Virus record (IMG/VR): IMGVR_UViG_2534681675_000013
Location: 1 to 39,954 of that record
Reading direction: 5' to 3' (one strand)
Origin: a virus
Taxonomy: Duplodnaviria; Heunggongvirae; Uroviricota; Caudoviricetes
DNA: 39,954 nucleotides
In this document: positions 4,504-35,316 of the stretch, in pieces
Layout of the letters: each line of letters opens with the position of its first letter
Numbering within the stretch: position 1 is the first letter of the stretch
The notes under the pieces: generated by a model
What the model was told of the DNA's origin: nothing
The model's database searches: none
What the model saw: only the letters and a program-made list of their open reading frames with translations
Translations under genes and position numbers: made by a program

Positions 4504-4986
4504 TTATTTGATAAGAAGTGAAGGTTTCCCAACTTTGAGTTGAGCGCCGGGGATATTTATTCCTGCTTTTAGCTGGTGTTTGATTGCCAGTTTGTCGGCT
4601 TTAATTGTCGTTTCAAACTCAACGTATTCAGGAGGAAGGGCGCTTGAGTCGATTATTTCTACAATTTCTGACGGTTTGCGAATTGTTACCTGGTGAATAC
4701 CTGCTCGAATCTTTTTCTTGCCAACCATTTCAAGCGATGACGCTATATACGCCATAATGCTGTCAATCTTATTTTGAATTACTGCGGCTCTCTCATTTAG
4801 TGACTTTGCCTCGTCCTTGAGGCGTTCAGCATAACCAGATTCATTTTTAATAATGGCAAGAAGTTGCTCTATTTTATCGGTAAATTCTCCTTCCATTCCT
4901 TCTATTGTGTCAGCAATCATCTCTGGCTCTAAATCTGAATCCATCAGCTTTGCGTATTCATTGACTATTTCATACAGTTTGCTCAC
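4504..4986 (-). CDS. Gp157-family-like protein adjacent to recombinase
   Basis: About 160 aa, acidic/coiled; lies immediately downstream of the RecT-like gene, where Gp157-type proteins usually sit; start taken at GTG after GGAGG. Confidence 0.45.
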   Translation of the reverse strand: MSKLYEIVNEYAKLMDSDLEPEMIADTIEGMEGEFTDKIEQLLAIIKNESGYAERLKDEAKSLNERAAVIQNKIDSIMAYIASSLEMVGKKKIRAGIHQVTIRKPSEIVEIIDSSALPPEYVEFETTIKADKLAIKHQLKAGINIPGAQLKVGKPSLLIK

Positions 4987-5881
4987 TGGCAACCTCCAGT
5001 TTCGCTTTGCATTCTATGTAAATGGCTTGTACGTTCTGCTGCAATTTCATTCCAGATGTCAGGCGATATGCTTCTGCAAAATATCGTTTCAAATCATCCA
5101 TGTTTTCTGCCTGAGCCATTTCATCACAAAGAAGTTGAGCTTTTTCCATAATTTCCTGCTGGCGTTTCCGTTCATCTTCGCGGATATCTTCCTCTGATTT
5201 GTGCGGCATAACTGGTTCAGTCCATACACCTTCTTCTTCGTTTAGTACGTGAATAGCACTATCAAGACGTGATGCCTTAGGCCAATACTTGCTTGCACGC
5301 TTTACGACCGTCTTTCGCGCCATCTCATTCCAGTGATTTACCCATGGTCCTTTATCTCTGAATGCCGCCTTGCTTGTTTTCCTTACAGCCTCAATTTCAG
5401 CCAGACTCATCTCTTCCGTTAGATAATCACCTGCTGGCGTCTTAACTGTGCAGTAAACGCCAACGATATCACCACGATCACCGAAGGCGTTGTATTTATG
5501 GGTTGGTGCTTTATCAAGCCCGTTTGACTCATAGGTATCGTTAGCATGAACAAGTTTTGCCTGACCCCATGAGATAACACCAGACTCCATTGCAATATGG
5601 AGCAATCCCATATAACTGATATCAAGGCACACCATGCCGTCGCGCGGAACCAGATAAGCCAGTTTGCTAGCCGGGTTTAAGGTGATGCCGATCGCCGCAA
5701 CATTGATGATGGCGTTCTGTGCGCTGGTTGGATTTTCCAGTGCTGTTTTAGCCAGGTAATCATTTTTCTGGAAATACTGAATTGCAAACTGGCTTTCCTT
5801 AGCCCATGTCACCGTCTGTTCAGTCAATGCTCCGCAGAATAACTGCTCTTGCTGTTTAACGAATTCAACGATATTGCTCAT
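4970..5881 (-). CDS. RecT-family single-strand annealing protein
   Basis: 303 aa; region AAIGITLNPASKLAYLVPRDG...LDISYMGLLHIAMESGVISW fits the RecT pattern as I recall it; occupies the position of lambda bet/exo. Confidence 0.7.
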   Translation of the reverse strand: MSNIVEFVKQQEQLFCGALTEQTVTWAKESQFAIQYFQKNDYLAKTALENPTSAQNAIINVAAIGITLNPASKLAYLVPRDGMVCLDISYMGLLHIAMESGVISWGQAKLVHANDTYESNGLDKAPTHKYNAFGDRGDIVGVYCTVKTPAGDYLTEEMSLAEIEAVRKTSKAAFRDKGPWVNHWNEMARKTVVKRASKYWPKASRLDSAIHVLNEEEGVWTEPVMPHKSEEDIREDERKRQQEIMEKAQLLCDEMAQAENMDDLKRYFAEAYRLTSGMKLQQNVQAIYIECKAKLEVASEQTV

Positions 5882-7188: not shown

Positions 7189-7368
7189 TTAACCAAGTTC
7201 TCTGGCAATCATTGCCGTCGTTCGTATTGCCCATTTATCGACATATTTCCCATCTTCCATTACAGGAAACATTTCTTCAGGCTTAACCATGCATTCCGAT
7301 TGCAGCTTGCATCCATTGCATCGCTTGAATTGTCCACACCATTGATTTTTATCAATAGTCGTAGTCAT
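7189..7368 (-). CDS. ral: Restriction alleviation protein Ral
   Basis: Hand-translated MTTTIDKNQWCGQFKRCNGCKLQSECMVKPEEMFPVMEDGKYVDKWAIRTTAMIARELG, which matches lambda Ral as I recall it; 59 aa, so absent from the ORF track. Confidence 0.6.
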   Translation of the reverse strand: MTTTIDKNQWCGQFKRCNGCKLQSECMVKPEEMFPVMEDGKYVDKWAIRTTAMIARELG

Positions 7369-7446: not shown

Positions 7447-7773
7447 TCAAATAAGTTGTTTGCTGCCTAATTTCATTTTCTGGCGACCAACACAAGTCAC
7501 ACCCATTTCACTGCGTGGCTTGCTGTACCATGTGCGCTGATTCTTGCGCTCAATACGCTGCAGGTTGCTTTCAATCTGTTCGTGGTATTCAGCCAGCACC
7601 GTAAGGTCTATCGGATTCAGTGCGCTTTCTACTCGTGATTTCGGTTTGCGATTCAGCGAGAGAATAGGGCGGTTAACTGGTTTTGCGCTTACCCCAACCA
7701 ACAGGGGATTTGCTGCTTTCCATTGAGCCTGTTTCTCTGCGCGACGTTCGCGGCGGCGTGTTTGTGCATCCAT
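7447..7773 (-). CDS. N: Antiterminator N
   Basis: Internal start MDAQTRRRERRAEKQAQWKAANPLLVGVSAKPVNRP..., near-identical to lambda N as recalled (arginine-rich boxB-binding motif). Confidence 0.9.
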   Translation of the reverse strand: MDAQTRRRERRAEKQAQWKAANPLLVGVSAKPVNRPILSLNRKPKSRVESALNPIDLTVLAEYHEQIESNLQRIERKNQRTWYSKPRSEMGVTCVGRQKMKLGSKQLI

Positions 7774-8016: not shown

Positions 8017-8061
8017 ATCTGTATGTTTTTTATATAGATTTATTTTTTGCAGGGTTGTGTG

Positions 8062-8069: not shown

Positions 8070-8154
8070 GTAAGCGTAAACCGACCGCCGTATGTAGCCA
8101 TTAGACAAGAATTGGTAACTTAGACGCCCATCTGACACAGACGGACATCTAAGT

Positions 8155-8574
8155 ATGGAATTACAGGACTGGCGAAAAGAACCTCGTAAAAAGTATTCGA
8201 ATGAATTCAAACTTCGTATGGTTGAACTGGCATCACAACCCGGTGCTTGTGTGGCTCAGATTGCACGAGAAAATGGCGTCAATGATAATGTTATTTTCAA
8301 ATGGCTCAGACTCTGGCAAAACGAAGGGCGTATATCACGGCGTCTTCCGGTGACAACCACTTCTGATGCAGGCCTTGAATTATTACCTGTAGAGATAACC
8401 TCTGATGAGCCGAAAGAACCGATGGCTGCTCTTACTCCGCCCTTATCCACTCAGACTACTGTCAGTGCCAGCTCCTGCAAGGTGGAGTTCCGTCACGGTA
8501 ACATGACGCTGGAAAATCCTTCACCAGAGCTGCTCACTGTATTGATTCGTGAACTGACCGGGAGGGGAAGATGA
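8155..8574 (+). CDS. tnpA: IS66 accessory protein TnpA (orf1)
   Basis: 139 aa, first ORF of the element; ATGA-coupled to the next ORF. Confidence 0.8.
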   Translation: MELQDWRKEPRKKYSNEFKLRMVELASQPGACVAQIARENGVNDNVIFKWLRLWQNEGRISRRLPVTTTSDAGLELLPVEITSDEPKEPMAALTPPLSTQTTVSASSCKVEFRHGNMTLENPSPELLTVLIRELTGRGR

Positions 8575-8920
8575 TCTCACTCCCATCCGGTACCCGTATC
8601 TGGCTCGTTGCCGGGATAACCGATATGCGTAAGTCTTTCAACGGGCTGGGTGAACAGGTACAGCATGTGTTAAATGTTAATCCCTTCTCCGGTCACCTGT
8701 TATCTTCCGTGGCCGACGGGGTGACACCGTTAAAATTCTTTGGGCTGATGCTGATGGTCTGTGCCTGTTCACCAAACGCCTGGAGGAAGGCCAGTTTATC
8801 TGGCCTGCGGTGCGTGACGGTAAGGTATCCATTACCCGCTCGCAACTGGCAATGCTCCTCGATAAGCTGGACTGGCGTCAGCCAAAAACATCCCGCCTTA
8901 ACGCCCTGACAATGTTGTAA
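8571..8920 (+). pseudogene. tnpB: IS66 TnpB (orf2), apparently frameshifted
   Basis: First 40 aa (MISLPSGTRIWLVAGITDMRKSFNGLGEQVQHVLNVNPFSGHL) are in one frame; the conserved C-terminus (...VKILWADADGLCLFTKRLEEGQFIWPAVRDGKVSITRSQLAMLLDKLDWRQPKTSRLNALTML) is in the +1 frame, consistent with a 1-nt deletion near 8700. Confidence 0.55.
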
Positions 8921-8950
8921 AAAACGCCTGGCCGCATTATAAAAACGGCC

Positions 8951-10543
8951 ATGAGTCAGAAATACCTCATTCGCATTGCAGAACTGGAAAGCCAGCTCCG
9001 TCAGAAAGACCAGCAACTGAGTCTGGTTGAAGAGACGGAGGCCTTCCTGCGCTCTGCACTGGCACGTGCCGAAGAAAAGATCGAAGAAGATGAACGGGAA
9101 ATAGAACATCTGCGGGCTCAGATAGAAAAACTGCGCCGGATGCTGTTCGGTACCCGTTCTGAAAAACTGCGTCGTGAAGTTGAACAGGCTGAGGCCCTGC
9201 TGAAACAACGCGAACAGGACAGCGATCGTTACAGTGGGCGGGAAGACGATCCACAGGTTCCCCGCCAGTTGCGACAGTCGCGCCATCGTCGTCCGTTACC
9301 GGCACACCTTCCCCGTGAAATACACCGTCTGGAGTCTGAAGAAAGTTGTTGCCCGGAATGTGGCGGCGAGCTGGATTATCTGGGGGAAGTCAGTACTGAG
9401 CAGCTGGAACTGGTGAGCAGCGCCCTGAAAGTGATCCGCACAGAACGGGTAAAAAAAGCCTGTACAAAATGTGACTGCATCATTGAAGCACCGGCGCCGT
9501 CCCGCCCGATAGAGCGTGGTATCGCGGGCCCCGGATTACTTGCCCGCGTGTTAACGGGAAAATACTGCGAACACCTGCCACTGTATCGTCAGAGTGAAAT
9601 CTTTGCCCGACAGGGTGTCGAACTGAGCCGTGCATTACTCTCCAACTGGGTTGACGCGTGCTGCCAGTTAATGATGCCGCTGAATGATGCCCTGTACCGT
9701 TATGTGATGAATACCCGCAAGCTTCACACTGACGACACACCGGTAAAGGTACTGGCACCGGGCTTGAAAAAGACGAAAACAGGGCGCATCTGGACGTATG
9801 TCCGGGATGATCGCAATGCGGGTTCGTCATCTCCTCCGGCGGTCTGGTTCGCGTACTCACCGAACCGGCAGGGGAAACACCCGGAGCAACACCTCCGCCC
9901 CTTCCGGGGTATCCTGCAGGCGGATGCGTTCACAGGTTATGACAGGCTGTTCAGTGCAGAACGTGAAGGTGGTGCGCTGACAGAAGTTGCGTGCTGGGCC
10001 CATGCCCGGAGAAAAATCCACGATGTATACATCAGCAGCAAAAGTGCGACGGCAGAAGAAGCCCTGAAGCGAATCAGTGAACTGTACGCCATCGAGGATG
10101 AAATACGGGGATTACCAGAGTCAGAGCGTCTTGCAGTCAGACAGCAGCGAAGCAAAGCGTTACTGACGTCGCTGCATGAATGGATGGTGGAGAAGAATGG
10201 CACGCTGTCGAAAAAATCCAGACTGGGCGAAGCGTTCAGCTATGTACTGAATCAGTGGGACGCCCTCTGTTATTACAGTGATGACGGACTGGCGGAGACG
10301 GACAATAACACAGCGGAAAGAGCGCTTCGTGCAGTCTGTCTTGGAAAGAAAAATTACGTGTTCTTCGGTAGCGATCACGGTGGCGAGCGTGGTGCACTGC
10401 TATACGGGCTGATCGGCACCTGCCGTCTGAACGGTATCGATCCGGAAGCGTATCTGCGCCATATTCTGAGCGTACTGCCGGAATGGCCCTCCAACCGTGT
10501 TGACGAACTCCTGCCATGGAACGTGGTTCTCACCAATAAATAA
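8951..10543 (+). CDS. tnpC: IS66 transposase TnpC
   Basis: 530 aa; cysteine cluster CPECGGEL...CTKCDC and a long conserved core typical of IS66 transposases. Confidence 0.9.
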   Translation: MSQKYLIRIAELESQLRQKDQQLSLVEETEAFLRSALARAEEKIEEDEREIEHLRAQIEKLRRMLFGTRSEKLRREVEQAEALLKQREQDSDRYSGREDDPQVPRQLRQSRHRRPLPAHLPREIHRLESEESCCPECGGELDYLGEVSTEQLELVSSALKVIRTERVKKACTKCDCIIEAPAPSRPIERGIAGPGLLARVLTGKYCEHLPLYRQSEIFARQGVELSRALLSNWVDACCQLMMPLNDALYRYVMNTRKLHTDDTPVKVLAPGLKKTKTGRIWTYVRDDRNAGSSSPPAVWFAYSPNRQGKHPEQHLRPFRGILQADAFTGYDRLFSAEREGGALTEVACWAHARRKIHDVYISSKSATAEEALKRISELYAIEDEIRGLPESERLAVRQQRSKALLTSLHEWMVEKNGTLSKKSRLGEAFSYVLNQWDALCYYSDDGLAETDNNTAERALRAVCLGKKNYVFFGSDHGGERGALLYGLIGTCRLNGIDPEAYLRHILSVLPEWPSNRVDELLPWNVVLTNK

Positions 10544-10573
10544 GCGTCAATACGGTGCTCCGTTGACGCTTAC

Positions 10574-10581: not shown

Positions 10582-10689
10582 AGGTGATCGAGAGATCTGA
10601 ATTGCGATGTTTAGTGAGTTGTATCTATTAATTTTCAAATAAATACAATTGGTTATGTGTTCTTGGGTGAGGGGGATCGTGAGGCAAAG

Positions 10690-10719: not shown

Positions 10720-11562
10720 TTATGGTTTTTTTTGGTCGTGCTTTGCTAGGGCTTTATGAGTTTTCTTAATGCTGCTTCTAACTTTCTGAATTTTTTCTTG
10801 GGAAAGTTTTATGTTTTCAGGGGCTGTTCCAGTGTTAGAAATCATTACATTGCGAACAGATCTCCCTACGGTCTCAGCAGCATTCTCTAGTTGAGACTGT
10901 CCCTTCAGGTTCTGGTTTCTGATTCTTGCTTCTGTCTGTGTAATTCTGAATATATTGGCCGCGAGCTCTTCGCTTCCCATGAAGTCAAGCATCGTTCCAT
11001 CTTTTTTAGTTAGGCCTTTTCGAGCTTTCAACTGTGAGAGATTCATATTGTACATCCCACGGTAGCCCGCATTTTGAAATAGACCATAGTCGACTACTCC
11101 GTGTTTATGGGCTACATGACTGAGAGTTTTCTCTCTAGATGTAATCTCGCCACGCAAATAAACTCGATTAACTGCGTCATGGTTATGATATGTAGTGTGT
11201 ATTTCTGCTGCGAGCCCAGCAAAATAAGCTTGTGCATTTGCAACTTTTTGATTGCTGATGTCACCATTCATTACAATCAGATAACAAGCGAAACGAGTTA
11301 ATTTAAAGTCATTTTTCGCATTTTCTGAAGGCATCTGGATGAAGTTATCGTATACAGGGATATCGAGGCTCACACATACAGATGTAGCTTTGTTGATGGC
11401 TTTCAATATCTGATCCATGCCATTATATCCAAGCATCATCGCTAAATCAGATGCAAACCAATAGGTAACACCGTTTTCTCTAGCGAAATCATCAAATGTT
11501 AACTGTGATGTGTCATCGAAAACAGTAATTTGCCTACTCATATCACACCCGAACTTACTCAT
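10720..11562 (-). CDS. DinD/RhuM-like protein with Bro-N-like N-terminus, in the lambda rexAB slot
   Basis: 280 aa; N-terminal YWFASDLAMMLGY fits the Bro-N pattern; central and C-terminal regions (GLFQNAGYRGMYN, SEELAANIFRITQTE) resemble DinD-family proteins as I recall them. Family call is from memory. Confidence 0.6.
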   Translation of the reverse strand: MSKFGCDMSRQITVFDDTSQLTFDDFARENGVTYWFASDLAMMLGYNGMDQILKAINKATSVCVSLDIPVYDNFIQMPSENAKNDFKLTRFACYLIVMNGDISNQKVANAQAYFAGLAAEIHTTYHNHDAVNRVYLRGEITSREKTLSHVAHKHGVVDYGLFQNAGYRGMYNMNLSQLKARKGLTKKDGTMLDFMGSEELAANIFRITQTEARIRNQNLKGQSQLENAAETVGRSVRNVMISNTGTAPENIKLSQEKIQKVRSSIKKTHKALAKHDQKKP

Positions 11563-12366: not shown

Positions 12367-12430
12367 TATCACCGCAAGGGATAAATATCTAACACCGTGC
12401 GTGTTGACTGTTTTACCTCTAGCGGTGATA
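12367..12430. promoter_or_regulatory. oR3-oR2-oR1 with divergent pRM and pR
   Basis: TATCACCGCAAGGGATA (oR3), TAACACCGTGCGTGTTG (oR2), TACCTCTAGCGGTGATA (oR1-like) plus TTGACT and GATAAT pR hexamers upstream of cro. Confidence 0.9.
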
Positions 12431-12447
12431 ATAGTTGCATGTACTAA

Positions 12448-12775: not shown

Positions 12776-13069
12776 ATGGTTCGTGCAAACAAACGCAACG
12801 AGGCTCTACGAATCGAGAGTGCGTTGCTTAACAAAATCGCAATGCTTGGAACTGAGAAGACAGCGGAAGCTGTGGGAGTTGATAAGTCGCAGATCAGCAG
12901 GTGGAAGAGGGATTGGATTCCAAAGTTCTCAATGCTGCTTGCTGTTCTTGAATGGGGCGTCGTTGACGACGATATGGCTCGATTGGCGCGACAAGTTGCT
13001 GCGATTCTCACCAATAAAAAACGCCCGGCGGCAACCGAGCGTTCTGAACAAATCCAGATGGAGTTCTGA
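12776..13069 (+). CDS. cII: Transcriptional activator CII
   Basis: Internal start MVRANKRNEALRIESALLNKIAMLGTEKTAEAVGVDKSQISRWKRDWIPKF..., matching lambda CII (97 aa). Confidence 0.95.
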   Translation: MVRANKRNEALRIESALLNKIAMLGTEKTAEAVGVDKSQISRWKRDWIPKFSMLLAVLEWGVVDDDMARLARQVAAILTNKKRPAATERSEQIQMEF

Positions 13070-13091
13070 GGTCATTACTGGAACTATCAAC
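13013..13091 (-). ncRNA. oop: oop antisense RNA
   Basis: Minus-strand sequence ending in a GC-rich hairpin plus U-run overlaps the cII 3' end, matching the lambda oop region as recalled; ends approximate. Confidence 0.55.
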
Positions 13092-13101
13092 AGGAGTCAT
13101 T

Positions 13102-14001
13102 ATGACAAATACAGCAAAAATACTCAACTTCGGCAGAGGTAACTTTGCCGGACAGGAGCGTAATGTGGCAGATCTCGATGATGGTTACGCCAGACTATCA
13201 AATATGCTGCTTGAGGCTTATTCGGGCGCAGATCTGACCAAGCGACAGTTTAAAGTGCTGCTTGCCATTCTGCGTAAAACCTATGGGTGGAATAAACCAA
13301 TGGACAGAATCACCGATTCTCAACTTAGCGAGATTACAAAGTTACCTGTCAAACGGTGCAATGAAGCCAAGTTAGAACTCGTCAGAATGAATATTATCAA
13401 GCAGCAAGGCGGCATGTTTGGACCAAATAAAAACATCTCAGAATGGTGTATCCCTCAAAACGAGGGAAAATCCCCTAAAACGAGGGATAAAACATCCCTC
13501 AAATTGGGGGATTGCTATCCCTCAAAACAGGGGGACACAAAAGACACTATTACAAAAGAAAAAAGAAAAGATTATTCGTCCGAGAATTCTGGCGAATCCT
13601 CTGACCAGCCAGAAAACGATCTTTCTGTGGTTAAACCGGATGCTGCAATTCAGAGCGGCAGCAAGTGGGGAACAGCAGAAGACCTGACCGCCGCAGAGTG
13701 GATGTTTGACATGGTGAAGACCATCGCGCCATCAGCCAGAAAACCGAATTTTGCTGGGTGGGCTAACGATATCCGCCTGATGCGTGAACGTGACGGACGT
13801 AACCACCGCGATATGTGTGTGCTTTTCCGCTGGGCCTGCCAGGACAACTTCTGGTCCGGTAACGTGCTGAGTCCGGCCAAACTCCGCGACAAGTGGACCC
13901 AGCTCGAAATCAACCGTAACAAGCAACAGGCAGGCGTGACAGCCAGCAAACCAAAACTCGACCTGACAAACACTGACTGGATTTACGGGGTGGATTTATG
14001 A
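13102..14001 (+). CDS. O: Replication initiator O
   Basis: 299 aa matching lambda O as recalled; contains the ori iterons internally. Confidence 0.95.
   Translation: MTNTAKILNFGRGNFAGQERNVADLDDGYARLSNMLLEAYSGADLTKRQFKVLLAILRKTYGWNKPMDRITDSQLSEITKLPVKRCNEAKLELVRMNIIKQQGGMFGPNKNISEWCIPQNEGKSPKTRDKTSLKLGDCYPSKQGDTKDTITKEKRKDYSSENSGESSDQPENDLSVVKPDAAIQSGSKWGTAEDLTAAEWMFDMVKTIAPSARKPNFAGWANDIRLMRERDGRNHRDMCVLFRWACQDNFWSGNVLSPAKLRDKWTQLEINRNKQQAGVTASKPKLDLTNTDWIYGVDL
13450..13533 (+). repeat. ori-lambda iterons (four about 19-bp repeats) followed by AT-rich region
   Basis: Four tandem copies of ATCCCTCAAAACGAGGGA-like units inside O, followed by an A/T-rich stretch. Confidence 0.8.
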
Positions 14002-14699
14002 AAAACATCGCCGCACAGATGGTTAACTTTGACCGTGAGCAGATGCGTCGGATCGCCAACAACATGCCGGAACAGTACGACGAAAAGCCGCAGGTACAAC
14101 AGGTAGCGCAGATCATCAATGGTGTGTTCAGCCAGTTACTGGCAACTTTCCCGGCGAGCCTAGCTAACCGGGACCAGAACGAACTGAACGAAATCCGCCG
14201 CCAGTGGGTGCTGGCTTTCCGGGAAAACGGGATCACCACAATGGAACAGGTTAACGCAGGAATGCGCGTAGCCCGTCGGCAGAATCGACCATTTCTGCCA
14301 TCACCCGGGCAGTTTGTTGCATGGTGCCGGGAAGAAGCATCCGTTATCGCCGGACTGCCAAACGTCAGCGAGCTGGTTGATATGGTTTACGAGTATTGCC
14401 GGAAGCGAGGCCTGTATCCGGATGCGGAGTCTTATCCGTGGAAATCAAACGCGCACTACTGGCTGGTTACCAACCTGTATCAGAACATGCGGGCCAATGC
14501 GCTTACTGATGCGGAATTACGCCGTAAGGCCGCAGATGAGCTTGTCCATATGACTGCGAGAATTAACCGTGGTGAGGCGATCCCTGAACCAGTAAAACAA
14601 CTTCCTGTCATGGGCGGTAGACCTCTAAATCGTGCACAGGCTCTGGCGAAGATCGCAGAAATCAAAGCTAAGTTCGGACTGAAAGGAGCAAGTGTATGA
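13998..14699 (+). CDS. P: Replication protein P (helicase loader)
   Basis: 233 aa matching lambda P as recalled; ATGA-coupled to O. Confidence 0.95.
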   Translation: MKNIAAQMVNFDREQMRRIANNMPEQYDEKPQVQQVAQIINGVFSQLLATFPASLANRDQNELNEIRRQWVLAFRENGITTMEQVNAGMRVARRQNRPFLPSPGQFVAWCREEASVIAGLPNVSELVDMVYEYCRKRGLYPDAESYPWKSNAHYWLVTNLYQNMRANALTDAELRRKAADELVHMTARINRGEAIPEPVKQLPVMGGRPLNRAQALAKIAEIKAKFGLKGASV

Positions 14700-14986
14700 C
14701 GGGCAAAGAGGCAATTATTCATTACCTGGGGACGCATAATAGCTTCTGTGCGCCGGACGTTGCCGCGCTAACAGGCGCAACAGTAACCAGCATAAATCAG
14801 GCCGCGGCTAAAATGGCACGGGCAGGTCTTCTGGTTATCGAAGGTAAGGTCTGGCGAACGGTGTATTACCGGTTTGCTACCAGGGAAGAACGGGAAGGAA
14901 AGATGAGCACGAACCTGATTTTTAAGGAGTGTCGCCAGAGTGCCGCGATGAAACGGGTATTGGCGGTATATGGAGTTAAAAGATGA
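14696..14986 (+). CDS. ren: Ren
   Basis: 96 aa MTGKEAIIHYLGTHNSFCAPDVAALTG..., matching lambda Ren. Confidence 0.9.
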   Translation: MTGKEAIIHYLGTHNSFCAPDVAALTGATVTSINQAAAKMARAGLLVIEGKVWRTVYYRFATREEREGKMSTNLIFKECRQSAAMKRVLAVYGVKR

Positions 14987-15059
14987 CCATCTACATCACT
15001 GAGCTAATAACAGGCCTGCTGGTAATCGCAGGCCTTTTTATTTGGGGGAGAGGGAAGTC

Positions 15060-15500
15060 ATGAAAAAACTAACCTTTGAAATTCGATCTCCAGCACATCA
15101 GCAAAACGCTATTCACGCAGTACAGCAAATCCTTCCAGACCCAACCAAACCAATCGTAGTAACCATTCAGGAACGCAACCGCAGCTTAGACCAAAACAGG
15201 AAGCTATGGGCCTGCTTAGGTGACGTCTCTCGTCAGGTTGAATGGCATGGTCGCTGGCTGGATGCAGAAAGCTGGAAGTGTGTGTTTACCGCAGCATTAA
15301 AGCAGCAGGATGTTGTTCCTAACCTTGCCGGGAATGGCTTTGTGGTAATAGGCCAGTCAACCAGCAGGATGCGTGTAGGCGAATTTGCGGAGCTATTAGA
15401 GCTTATACAGGCATTCGGTACAGAGCGTGGCGTTAAGTGGTCAGACGAAGCGAGACTGGCTCTGGAGTGGAAAGCGAGATGGGGAGATCGGGCTGCATGA
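15060..15500 (+). CDS. ninB: NinB
   Basis: Internal start MKKLTFEIRSPAHQQNAIHAVQQILPD... preceded by GGGAGAGGGAAG; matches lambda NinB (146 aa). Confidence 0.9.
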   Translation: MKKLTFEIRSPAHQQNAIHAVQQILPDPTKPIVVTIQERNRSLDQNRKLWACLGDVSRQVEWHGRWLDAESWKCVFTAALKQQDVVPNLAGNGFVVIGQSTSRMRVGEFAELLELIQAFGTERGVKWSDEARLALEWKARWGDRAA

Positions 15501-16024
15501 CTATCAAATCAAATACGCCAGCACACGACAAGGACTGCTGGCAAACGCCGCTTTGGCTTTTTGATGCACTGGATATTGAGTTTGGATTCTGGCTGGATTC
15601 AGCTGCGAGCGACAAAAACGCTCTGTGCGCTCACTGGCTAACTGAGGTCGACGACGCGCTCAATTCTGAGTGGGTAAGCCACGGTGCAATCTGGAATAAC
15701 CCACCGTACAGCAATATCAGGCCGTGGGTGGAAAAAGCCGCTGAGCAGTGCATACAACAGCGACAGACGGTAGTGATGCTTGTGCCAGAGGATATGTCAG
15801 TCGGATGGTTCAGCAAGGCTCTGGAGAGTGTTGACGAAGTTCGCATCATCACTGATGGACGGATTAATTTTATCGAACCATCGACAGGGCTGGAGAAGAA
15901 GGGAAACAGCAAAGGCTCCATGCTGCTGATTTGGCGACCGTTCATCAGTCCTCGACGGATGTTTACTACCGTATCCAAAGCGGCATTGATGGCGATCGGG
16001 CAGGGCATCAGGAGGGCGGCATGA
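15497..16024 (+). CDS. Phage N6-adenine DNA methyltransferase (Dam-like), in place of ninC
   Basis: Start [29 protein letters not shown]-coupled to ninB; catalytic NPPY motif visible (WNNPPYS). Confidence 0.75.
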
Positions 16025-16197
16025 GGCGACAGCGACGAAGTATCACCGACATCATCTGCGAAAACTGCAAATACCTTCCAACGAAACGCTCCAGAAATAA
16101 ACCCAAGCCAATCCCAAAAGAATCTGACGTAAAAACCTTCAACTACACGGCTCACCTGTGGGATATCCGGTGGCTAAGACATCGTGCGAGGAAATGA
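16021..16197 (+). CDS. ninE: NinE
   Basis: Internal start [58 protein letters not shown], matching lambda NinE; ATGA-coupled to the methyltransferase. Confidence 0.7.
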
Positions 16198-16559
16198 CAA
16201 TGGATTATTCACAGTTAAGTGATTTTGAAATTAACAAGCGAGTGGCAATTTGCTGTGGATTTGCTCCCGAAGATTGCGAAATCGCAAAGTTGGGAACATC
16301 AATCGTTGGTGTTGAGTGGGATGACGAAACTGGTTATGCAATAAAAACGGTTGATTACTGTAAAAGCCCATCAGACGCAGAGCCGATTATCGTAGAGAAC
16401 AGAATTGGCATTATTCCAGCGCCAGAAAATGGATTATGGAAGGCAGCGCATAGAAAAGTTGGCAGTGATAGTACCCCATATCATATGACTCAAGATGAAA
16501 ACCCACTCCGCGCTGCCATGATTGTCTTTCTCATGATGCAGGACGCCAATAATGCTTAG
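16194..16559 (+). CDS. Hypothetical nin-region protein (about 121 aa)
   Basis: Start [23 protein letters not shown] overlapping ninE stop; not a lambda gene I recognise. Confidence 0.45.
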
Positions 16560-16728
16560 CCCATCCCAATCCCTTCAATACCAGAAAGAAAGCGTCGAGC
16601 GGGCTTTAACGTGCGCTAACTGCGGTCAGAAGCTGCATGTGCTGGAAGTTCACGTGTGTGAGCACTGCTGCGCAGAACTGATGAGCGATCCGAATAGCTC
16701 AATGCACGAGGAAGAAGACGATGGCTAA
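16552..16728 (+). CDS. ninF: NinF
   Basis: Hand-translated 58 aa ...[46 protein letters not shown], matching lambda NinF C-terminus; below ORF-track cutoff. Confidence 0.6.
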
Positions 16729-17535: not shown

Positions 17536-18184
17536 TGGCAGCAAATACCGAAATATTTGGGTAGTTGGCGATCTGCACGGATGCTACACGAACCTGATGA
17601 AAAAACTGGAGACGATAGGATTCGACACCAAAAAAGACCTGCTTATCTCGGTTGGCGATTTGGTCGATCGCGGTACAGAGAACGTTGAATGCCTGGAATT
17701 AATCACATTCCCCTGGTTCATAGCTGTACGTGGAAACCATGAGCAAATGATGATTGATGGCTTATCAGAGCGTGGAAACGTCAATCACTGGCTGCTTAAT
17801 GGCGGTGGCTGGTTCTTTAATCTCGATTACGACAAAGAAATTCTGGCTAAAGCTCTTGCCCATAAAGCAGATGAACTTCCGTTAATCATCGAACTGGTGA
17901 GCAAAGATAAAAAATATATCATCTGCCACGCCGATTATCCTTGTGACGAATACGAGTTTGGAAAGCCAGTTGATCATCAGCAGGTAATCTGGAACCGCGA
18001 ACGAATCAGCAACTCACAAGACGGGATCGTGAAAGAAATCAAAGGCGCGGACATGTTCATCTTTGGTCATACGCCCGCAGTGAAACCACTCAAATTTGCC
18101 AACCAGATGTATATCGATACTGGGGCAGTGTTCTGCGGAAATCTCACATTGATTCAGGTACAGGGAGAAGGCGCATGGGCATAA
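17513..18184 (+). CDS. ninI: NinI serine/threonine protein phosphatase
   Basis: Internal start [25 protein letters not shown]; metallophosphatase motifs GDLHG, GDLVDRG and GNHE visible. Confidence 0.85.
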
Positions 18185-18693
18185 GAGAACTAAACCTCAC
18201 CAAAGAACAGCACGAGTGGCTGAATGGCTGGCTTGAACTGTGGGGCGCATGGGTTTATTCAGGTCGTCTGGAAAAGCGCATGAGCAGCGTAATAGCGAAG
18301 TTTATGGAGAGCGTAGAGCCGGGAAGAGTTATTACAAGGCCAATGTGCAATGATGATGATGGAATGTTGATTTCTCAGGTCGTCGATTCCGTCATGTACA
18401 TTGACAAAAAAGCTTTTGGCATCCTCCTCAGCTACTACGCTCATGGTTCATCTAAGCGAGCAATTGCATCCTACTATCACGAGACTGCAAAGCCACGCAA
18501 GATGTGTGGACGTGGTGGCGAGGGATGGAGAAAACCTTCACTGGCAACCTGTAGAAACGAAATTGACGACATCCTGAAAGCGTCATTATTTGTTTTGTAC
18601 CAACCAATGCAAAATGCTTTCAAAATGCGTAAACGTGTTGATAAAGTTAAGCATGTTGCTGTTAAAAACCTTGACATGCAATTAGCCATTTAG
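18175..18693 (+). CDS. Q: Late antiterminator Q, non-lambda type
   Basis: Position (overlaps ninI stop, directly upstream of the lysis cassette); sequence is unlike lambda Q, so the call is positional. Likely a phage 21/82-type Q. Confidence 0.55.
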
Positions 18694-33064: not shown

Positions 33065-34902
33065 TGAAAGTAACTGCAAACGGTAAGACATTTACCTTCC
33101 CTGATGGTACGAGCACGGAAGATATTGGATCTGCCATTGATGAGTATTTTGCTGGACAGTCTGTTCAGCAACAAACTGTCAGCCAGGATAGCAATGAACC
33201 AGCACGTGAAGAACCATCATTGATGCAACAAGCTGGCGATTGGCTCACTGGTGGTCAAAGTGCAGGGCAAATTGCAGAACAGGCTGGTCGTGGTCTGGTA
33301 AACATACCATTTGACGTATTGCAGGGTGGCGCAAGTCTGATTAATGCAATCAGTCAGGGGCTTGGTGGACCCAAGGTTTTGGATGATGTTTATCGTCCAG
33401 TAGACAGACCGACAGACCCCTACGCGCAAGCCGGTGAAACAATTGGTGGGTATTTAGTTCCAGGAGTTGGAACGGCAGGAAGCATGGCTATTGGCTCACT
33501 GGCAGAGGCTGCAAATCAGAAAGGCGATTTCGCACAAAATGCAGCAAGAAACGCCGGAGTTAACCTTGCCGCTCAGGGGGTTCTTTCCGCAGCAGCAAAG
33601 GGAATAGGGCGTGGAATAACGGCTATAAAAGGTGATATTGCGCCAGAAGTGGCGAAGAAAATTGCCACATCAGAATCGATGGGCGTGACACCAATGACAT
33701 CTGATGTTATCCCGCCGAAAAATGCTTTCACTCGCGGCCTTACTCAGGATGCCGAGGGGGCTTTGCTCGGGACAGGCTCAAAGAGAGCGGAGCAATATGC
33801 AACGCGTAGTAAGCTGGTAAGCAATTATTTTGACCGTTTTGGTGAGTACAACCCTGATGATGTGGTGAAATCTCTGACCACCACGTTAAGGGGGCGGAAG
33901 GATGCCGCTGGCGCTGTTATCAATGACGTCACCAATAAAATGGGTAATGCCGCAGTTGATACCACAAATACCATGAATGCTCTGAATACAGCGATCGCAA
34001 GACAGGAACGGCTTGGGACTTCAGCCAATCAAAGCCTGCTTACATCCTTGCGTAACCTACGTGAAGAATTAGCAAACCCTGCAACTGATTTGGATGTTAC
34101 GTTTGATCTCTTGCGTCAGCACAGAACAGCATTTAGATCTAATGTTCAGGGAGATTCTATGGTCTTCCCCAACCAGGCAAAAGCAGCTACCAATATGGTA
34201 GAGAATGCAATGTCAAAAGACCTTCGTAACGCAGTTGCAAAAAACCTCGGTGCGTCAGACGCAGCAAAATACCTTAAAGCAAATTCCGATTATGCAAACG
34301 TTTATAATAAGGTGCTTAATAAAAACATTGCTAACAAGCTCAACAAGGCAAGCAGTGAAGCCAGTCCTGAACTTATAAATACCGTTGTATTAAGCAGAAA
34401 GCCATCTGACGTGAAACGAATCTGGAGCGCATTGGATGATAAAGGGAAAGATGCTATGCGTGCAGCTTACGTCAGCAAAATAGCGGAAAAGGCCGGTGAC
34501 TTTCCAGCCAAGTTCATCACTGAAGTTAATAAGCTTAAATCTCAGTCAGGCGGTGAAATTTACAACACTATTTTTTCTGGAAAGCACATGAAAGAGCTTG
34601 ATGCTCTTCATGAAGTTCTACAGCAAACAGCAAGGTCAGACACCGCAAATGTAGTAACTCAGACGGGGCAATCACAAGCCAACAGGATAAGGACGATTGG
34701 CGCAACTGCGACTCTTGGAGTATCAATGGGGCTTGAGGCTGGCTTTGGTGCAATGATGCGTTTGTATGAGTCCAAAGCCGCAAGGAATATGCTTCTTCGT
34801 TTGGCAAACACCAAAGCAGGAACACCAGCCTATGAAAGAGCGCTAAATAACGCTGCGAATGCCATCAGACCGCTGTTTGCTACTGAGGCAACACAGCAGT
34901 AA
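33061..34902 (+). CDS. Ejection protein (P22 gp16-like)
   Basis: 613 aa, ATGA-coupled to the gp20-like gene; size and position match gp16. Confidence 0.85.
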
Positions 34903-34926
34903 CGTATGGGAAATTGGATTCAATCG

Positions 34927-35316
34927 CTAACATTTTCTTTTTACTTTTCCAACAAAAGCTTTGGTTGAATCCATATTTCCATAACCGGAAATGGTTTTTG
35001 ACATTAAAACTGTTCCAGTAGGATGTATTACCCATGAGTCGATAACGCGTTGAGTTTCGCCATTCGCGCCGATTCCTATGATGGAGTTTTTAGACAATGC
35101 TTTGTAAGCCATGCCGCCCGCATCTGTCCCAGAATATGTGATGCTGGCATCTTCACCGCTTGTCTTAATGATGAATGTTCCACTAAAACCATCTTCTTCC
35201 GGATGGAAATTATTTCGTTCTGAATAGCTTATTCCGCGCATATCTCCAACGACCCAGCACTCTGCTGTAGCCCCAAAAGATATGAATAAGAACATAGCAG
35301 CAAGAAATTGCTTCAC
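34927..35316 (-). CDS. Small secreted protein (about 130 aa), cargo in the sieA slot
   Basis: GTG start after AGGAGG; predicted signal peptide VKQFLAAMFLFISFGATA with cleavage before ECW; cysteines near both ends of the mature protein; opposite strand to the virion genes. Confidence 0.5.
   Translation of the reverse strand: MKQFLAAMFLFISFGATAECWVVGDMRGISYSERNNFHPEEDGFSGTFIIKTSGEDASITYSGTDAGGMAYKALSKNSIIGIGANGETQRVIDSWVIHPTGTVLMSKTISGYGNMDSTKAFVGKVKRKC

Follow-up and report, generated by a model that had tools for sequence, protein, structure and literature searches.

Open reading frames (ORFs) resembling adenine methyltransferases are found in many phages, and one of them lies among the nin genes of the lambdoid prophage analyzed here. 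In Escherichia coli, the host enzyme Dam methylates GATC in any case. This locus raises the question of what the gene, referred to below as dam, encodes, which sequence its product modifies, and what a phage would gain from such an enzyme. All positions refer to the window, i.e., the entire stretch of 39,954 nucleotides of viral DNA (Caudoviricetes) that was analyzed, and the features discussed are compiled in Table 1.

Gene boundaries, family membership, and distribution

The ORF list and a direct reading of the sequence identify dam as an intact plus-strand ORF of 175 codons plus a stop codon, with the ATG at 15497 to 15499 and the TGA at 16022 to 16024. A first-pass annotation of this DNA had reported a 175-amino-acid protein with an NPPY motif, and the translation bears this out, the motif occupying residues 68 to 71. 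Two longer in-frame versions, starting at GTG 15437 and ATG 15479, were ruled out by the family profiles and the N termini of homologues; since the PF05869 and TIGR01712 profiles begin at residues 2 to 4 and the homologues within approximately 3 residues, 15497 was retained as the start. The sequence GGGGAG, located 10 nt 5' of the ATG within the end of ninB, could serve as the ribosome-binding site. Nearly all of dam is also spanned by an antisense ORF of 174 amino acids (15631 to 16155, minus strand), which had no Pfam match. Since the conserved coding block of dam and ninE contains it in full, we regard it as a probable shadow ORF.

The domain search that had been proposed for the suspected Dam-like adenine methyltransferase returned full-length matches to two families. 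(i) The Pfam scan assigned the product to PF05869, "DNA N-6-adenine-methyltransferase (Dam)," with an E value of 1.2e-64 and 217.5 bits (cutoff, 28.1), residues 4 to 169 aligning with profile positions 1 to 167 of 169. (ii) The NCBIfam equivalog TIGR01712, "phage N-6-adenine-methyltransferase," was matched with an E value of 3.4e-79 and 264.1 bits (cutoff, 97.05), and its profile was covered from position 1 to 165 of 165. The product also matches phrog_111 (PHROG 111). Family E values of 1e-64 to 3e-79 exclude a chance match, and the Pfam scan, at E values of up to 0.01, retrieved nothing besides PF05869 and no other methyltransferase family. By both profiles, the dam product belongs to the phage N-6-adenine-methyltransferase family over its full length.

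The gene is widespread. DNA that is 95 to 99% identical to dam is present in 244 phage records, most of them from Stx-converting phages but also including Sf101, Louie, and others. Among 5,426 complete E. coli genomes, 1,566 (approximately 29%) contain dam, at up to five places per genome; there, it carries the RefSeq name "phage N-6-adenine-methyltransferase" and is located between NinB and NinE. The exact 175-amino-acid sequence is found on 65 contigs in NCBI. At the family level, searching 1.84 billion cluster representatives (50% identity) with a profile retrieved 15,821 clusters at an E value of ≤1e-3 and 6,514 at ≤1e-10, and members of the family were detected by tblastn in 1,899 of the 50,697 phage records searched, with carriers that include T1-like coliphages as well as Klebsiella, Vibrio, Lactococcus, Gordonia, and Staphylococcus phages. 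The window thus contains an ordinary copy of a very large, well-known phage methyltransferase family. Databases and the literature already cover the gene and its family, its place in lambdoid nin regions, and the GATC target reported for it, and the annotation pipeline of NCBI gives it the correct name.

A separate observation concerns the phages P27, Stx2a_F723, and phi345 and one E. coli chromosome, in which an HNH or NUMOD4 endonuclease is also annotated under the 528-base dam match. This gene is absent from the window, where dam runs straight into ninE.

Table 1. Positions of dam, its expression signals, its neighbors, and other features in the window
Feature	Position	Strand	Basis
ral, restriction alleviation, 59-amino-acid allele	7189-7368	-	PF11058, E value 4.4e-44; ORF
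IS66-family ORFs	8155-8574, 8571-8909, 8951-10543		HTH_Tnp_1, IS66 Orf2-like, DDE_Tnp_IS66
pR-like promoter, TTGACT-17-GATAAT	12404-12432	+	Promoter scan; block 98.9% identical to lambda immunity region
Terminator-like hairpin with T run, upstream of ninB	15012-15035	+	Terminator scan; lambda-identical stretch
ninB/orf, upstream neighbor, recombination mediator	15060-15500	+	PF05772, E value 2.1e-54
GGGGAG, possible Shine-Dalgarno sequence	15481-15486	+	Sequence
dam, phage orphan N6-adenine DNA methyltransferase, coding sequence	15497-16024	+	ORF, PF05869, TIGR01712, phrog_111, VT2-Sakai identity
ATGA, overlap of dam start codon and ninB stop codon (15498-15500)	15497-15500	+	Sequence
Codons of catalytic motif IV, NPPY (residues 68-71)	15698-15709	+	Translation; alignment of 28 homologues; preceded by strand 64-68 in model
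ATGA, overlap of ninE start codon (16021-16023) and dam stop codon	16021-16024	+	Sequence
ninE, downstream neighbor	16021-16197	+	PF05322, E value 4.4e-44

Position in the nin region and expected transcription

From O through ninB (13000 to 15500), the window is 98.8% identical to lambda, and this stretch ends at the last base of the ninB stop codon. In the DNA alignment, similarity to lambda is absent from 15501 to 16027 and is back at 16028, within ninE. The missing lambda segment (41085 to 42096) corresponds to ninC and most of ninD; in lambda, NinC, a phosphoadenosine phosphosulfate reductase-like protein of 290 amino acids, and NinD lie between NinB and NinE. The break of identity at 15500 and its resumption at 16028 therefore indicate that dam replaces ninC and ninD. 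The first-pass annotation had placed dam at the position of ninC, which is correct as to the slot after ninB but not as to the extent of the exchange, which involves ninC plus ninD rather than ninC alone. As judged from the alignment, the exchange points coincide with gene junctions, and the arrangement is one of ordinary lambdoid mosaicism. The block comprising dam and ninE (15490 to 16194) is 98.6% identical to VT2-Sakai DNA, and the genes downstream of dam encode NinE, NinX, NinF, NinG, NinH, a phosphatase, and the Q antiterminator. A paper on Orf/NinB family proteins was found to contain no functional link between this family and methyltransferases.

Translational coupling of dam to ninB and ninE had also been proposed. 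The ATGA overlaps on both sides of the gene are present, and they suggest that translation may be coupled. Such overlaps are general to the nin regions of all lambdoid phages (PMC8022706), and the two junctions are thus not peculiar to dam.

The pR-like promoter upstream is the likely source of the transcripts that reach dam. Between the two, the terminator-like hairpin occupies what we take to be the place of tR2 in lambda. Since dam lies beyond this tR2-like terminator in the pR operon, its transcription should need N antitermination and would be delayed-early.

Other departures of the prophage from lambda

Several further observations were made outside the immediate surroundings of dam. (i) An IS66-family element occupies positions 8070 to 10573 and separates the oL/pL region from the genes of the immunity region. 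It has ends with 24-nt imperfect inverted repeats starting with GTAAGCG (8070 to 8093 and 10550 to 10573), and lambda homology halts at 8054 and resumes at 10590. (ii) Lambda positions 34382 to 35061, including sieB, are missing; window position 7463 aligns with lambda 34381 and position 7472 with lambda 35062. (iii) A 280-amino-acid ORF with a Bro-N domain (10720 to 11562, minus strand) is found next to cI in place of lambda rexB/rexA and has no DNA similarity to rex. (iv) A P22-type ninX gene (PF10765; 16197 to 16559, plus strand) lies between ninE and ninF, at a second break with respect to lambda (16195 to 16585). (v) The Q gene (18175 to 18693) is not that of lambda; it matches PF06530, and the similarity to lambda stops at 18177. 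(vi) The early-left segment from 4504 to 5881 (minus strand) contains genes for RecT (4970 to 5881) and a Gp157-family protein (4504 to 4992) and shows no resemblance at the DNA level to exo, bet, or gam of lambda. (vii) The late region (19246 to 39954, plus strand) is P22-like, with gp3, the large terminase, the P22 portal and coat proteins, and a tailspike head-binding domain. Taken together, the prophage has a hybrid makeup.

Predicted fold and active site

A PDB search with the dam sequence yielded no relative, the best E value (0.09, to SdiA) being noise, and a predicted structure was therefore used. The AlphaFold model, built with 28 homologues (mean pLDDT, 83.6; pTM, 0.83), is a single alpha/beta domain with a helix at residues 19 to 29, a strand at 31 to 36, mostly coil at 37 to 63, and a strand at 64 to 68 that leads into NPPY. 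Residues N68, P69, P70, and Y71 are invariant across the 28 homologues, whose identity goes down to 59%. Further invariant positions are D34 and A36 after strand 1, the segment from N68 to S72, and R122, K139, and G140 in a hairpin at residues 121 to 140. On the model, these three sets may represent the loop for the cofactor, the catalytic loop, and a hairpin that possibly contacts DNA.

Foldseek returned five significant matches to the model, all of them PCIF1/CAPAM, which places the dam product in the M.EcoKI/M.TaqI-type "group 2" (PMC4738411). The model has a small single-domain class I methyltransferase fold with no separate recognition domain, and the predicted fold is that of a minimal M.TaqI/HsdM/PCIF1-like core. 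Neither the fold nor the literature found accounts for the way in which a core of 175 amino acids lacking a recognition domain selects GATC, and for no member of this very large family is a PDB structure detectable by sequence.

A bare core of this kind might not recognize GATC in the usual way on its own; it might have a wider or context-dependent specificity, might act on single-stranded intermediates passed on by NinB, or might accept an RNA substrate, all of which we consider decidedly improbable. RNA is hinted at by the best structural match, PCIF1, which methylates adenosine in RNA caps, and by what is known of the MT-A70 enzyme of an Stx phage, which is inactive alone on DNA and, together with PNB-2, prefers 16S rRNA (PMC10810198). 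By analogy with that phage "Dam homologue," the dam product would need a partner or act on RNA. The same two points speak for this reading, the PCIF1 match and a phage "DNA adenine methyltransferase" annotation that proved misleading (PMC10810198), and we regard it as very unlikely. The latter case illustrates that annotation alone is no proof, and a small probability is thus assigned to an unexpected substrate.

Target sequence

The product of dam is identical to the VT2-Sakai protein BAA94133 (M.EcoVT2Dam) in 173 of 175 residues, and both proteins have the same length. The sole differences, the conservative substitutions V51A and I171V, are in variable columns of the alignment of 28 homologues. 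M.EcoVT2Dam is stated to target 5'-GATC-3' in PMC6602927, which cites Radlinska & Bujnicki 2001 and gives this specificity to 99%-identical M.EcoVT2Dam copies, and VT-2 is named among the phages with Dam-like proteins (PMC7556043). The GATC assignment is second-hand, coming from two citing papers and REBASE-derived tables. The target of the methylase had been called unknown in the first-pass annotation; given 99% identity to an enzyme reported to recognize GATC, this statement was wrong. By extrapolation from this near-identity, the dam product most likely methylates the adenine of GATC.

It is unlikely that the specificity is broader than or different from GATC, for example, a relaxed-context adenine methylation that would protect against many restriction systems. 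Such enzymes are known from other phages (PMC7556043, PMC3299994), the dam product has only 175 amino acids and no target recognition domain, and restriction digest assays of the type used around 2001 can miss secondary sites. However, its 99% identity is to an enzyme that is reportedly GATC specific, and SMRT methylomes of bacteria with two M.EcoVT2Dam copies revealed GATC, CTGCAG, and CRARCAG (PMC6602927), the last of which was not attributed to the Dam homologues by the authors of that study. A link to the nonspecific adenine methyltransferases Hia5 and Hin1523 was considered and dismissed, as the paper describing them mentions neither HP1, VT2, nor PF05869.

GATC is scarce in the window as a whole, with 83 sites observed versus approximately 190 expected from trinucleotide counts (ratio, 0.44); the ratio for CTAG is similar (0.43). 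The depletion of GATC despite the presence of dam indicates that carriage of the gene has evidently not relaxed selection against GATC. Such a depletion would not be expected if the phage Dam fully removed that selection.

Orphan status, ral, and anti-restriction

The ORFs scanned across the window yielded no endonuclease domain, and dam is thus an orphan, as had been proposed; its surroundings are formed by nin genes, the phosphatase gene, and Q. A Yersinia prophage homologue with 66% identity is located in the early-left operon near an integrase gene, again without an adjacent endonuclease, which suggests that the gene moves as a solitary module.

The presence of ral in the same prophage was likewise confirmed, and we add that it is on the minus strand. 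The protein covers positions 1 to 59 of the 66 positions of the PF11058 profile. Its residues 1 to 59 are identical to those of lambda Ral (66 amino acids); a stop codon replaces K60, and the last 7 residues are gone. The exact 59-amino-acid allele occurs on at least 1,000 contigs under the name "antirestriction Ral family protein," indicating a common natural variant and not a private lesion. A search of the early-left region for a second methyltransferase or a further anti-restriction gene was negative.

It might be argued that dam is a decaying, nonfunctional remnant in a defective prophage, since an IS66-family element has inserted in the same prophage and ral has a stop at lambda codon 60. 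We consider this extremely unlikely: the dam ORF has full length with all invariant family residues intact, the exact protein is found on 65 contigs, the IS66-family element lies outside the pR operon, and the short Ral allele is itself common.

Ral modulates type I restriction systems, and the enzymes affected by a GATC methyltransferase would belong to another class. The proposal of two layers of anti-restriction, drawn from the predicted activities of dam and ral, is plausible; the two genes are independent, and their effects could be additive. Because the host Dam already methylates GATC, the anti-restriction benefit of dam would be conditional.

Proposed role of dam

We consider it highly probable that dam encodes an orphan, delayed-early GATC methyltransferase of the phage Dam family that tops up host Dam methylation, and this account as a whole best explains the data. 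Its family, motif, predicted fold, near-identity to M.EcoVT2Dam, genomic context, and orphan status were established in this study, the GATC specificity and the expression of the Phi24B dam gene come from the literature, and both the time of expression and the gain for the phage are inferred. According to this model, the gene product would be a small, single-domain, S-adenosylmethionine-dependent enzyme that methylates N6 of the GATC adenine, the NPPY loop binding the flipped-out base. Its delayed-early synthesis after N antitermination would coincide with phage DNA replication. It would complete, before packaging, the GATC methylation that the host Dam cannot keep up with on fast-replicating DNA. 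The progeny DNA would then be fully modified and shielded from MutH and from endonucleases that cut only unmethylated GATC, a protection that may be useful upon entry into the next host or where the host has little or no Dam. Ral would act separately on type I systems. As E. coli already methylates GATC, the phage enzyme would be redundant in a resting cell, and for the same reason a top-up function is the best-supported working model.

The function of phage Dam proteins has been described as not well understood (PMC7556043). In Phi24B, whose dam gene is 98.9% identical to that of the window, the product was detected in lysogen cultures and the transcript level changed significantly upon induction (PMC3342100). 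The host Dam was reported to be essential for keeping 933W lysogeny, and, as suggested by the authors of that study, the phage Dam may supplement it (PMC3342100).

The latter finding is among the arguments for a role of the same GATC enzyme that is mainly epigenetic or housekeeping and not anti-restriction. For example, phage DNA undergoing replication or recombination could be kept fully methylated and thereby escape MutH cutting and SeqA binding, or lysogeny and induction could be tuned. Further points in its favor are that GATC methylation in E. coli is already provided by the host Dam, that dam directly follows the gene of a recombination mediator, ninB, and that its presence in 29% of complete E. 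coli genomes, at up to five places, suggests a benefit beyond rare restriction systems. However, no direct evidence was found for roles in MutH or SeqA avoidance or in lysogeny tuning, a gene of the pR operon that lies past the tR2-like terminator would hardly be expected to be expressed while the prophage is stably repressed, and homologues exist in phages with annotations like those of lytic phages, such as T1-like coliphages and Klebsiella and Vibrio phages, in which lysogeny control cannot be what the gene does. Such a role is possible, but we view it with some doubt.

Comparison with known systems

Lambda NinC occupies the same position as the dam product but is an unrelated protein, with no DNA similarity across 15501 to 16027. 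Closer in annotation is the MT-A70 type (M.EcoPA8orf6770P; M.EcoGV-like), which resembles it in being an orphan carried by phages and in its annotation as a GATC adenine methyltransferase. The enzyme of this type from an Stx phage differs in having a DPPW motif and a cotranscribed partner gene for PNB-2; its own gene, gp5, is located toward the left prophage end and is cotranscribed with gp6 (PMC10810198). The dam product had no MT-A70 match in Pfam, and no such gene was found in the window. An identity with the "prophage-encoded rRNA methyltransferase" of PA8 was discarded on account of the NPPY motif, in place of DPPW, and the nin neighbors of dam.

The group 2 enzymes M.TaqI, M.EcoKI HsdM, MmeI, and PCIF1 (PMC4738411) share 9 to 16% identity with the dam product. 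Whereas they carry a recognition domain, a specificity subunit, or a helical RNA-binding domain, the dam product is a bare core. Approximately 105 to 107 core residues of the alpha-class enzymes E. coli Dam and T4 Dam align structurally with the model, at 8 to 9% identity. The product is not a member of this class (E. coli Dam/T4 Dam/DpnM), and no PDB Dam chain was retrieved by sequence. Compared with E. coli Dam, it lacks approximately 100 residues of length and a separate DNA recognition domain. Given these differences and the lack of a detectable sequence relationship, the GATC specificity that both have in common looks convergent.

The family to which the dam product belongs (PF05869/TIGR01712; founding members, HP1 Dam and T1 Dam) shares with it the NPPY motif, a length of approximately 165 to 185 amino acids, a single domain, and the orphan character, and the VT2-Sakai record itself notes the similarity to HP1 Orf13 and T1 M.T1. 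Homologues that do not belong to the lambdoid group of the Enterobacterales, for example, those of T1-like coliphages and of Vibrio, Klebsiella, and Aaphi23 phages, share only approximately 30 to 45% identity with the window dam and are at other genomic positions. The closest counterpart is M.EcoVT2Dam, which is reported in the citing literature to be an orphan and GATC specific; the window dam is likewise an orphan. The M.EcoVT2Dam gene is also present in 933W, Phi24B, HK97, Sf101, and Min27, in the same slot between ninB and ninE as the window dam, whose carrier is not an Stx phage but one that combines a lambda-like early region with P22-like virion genes.
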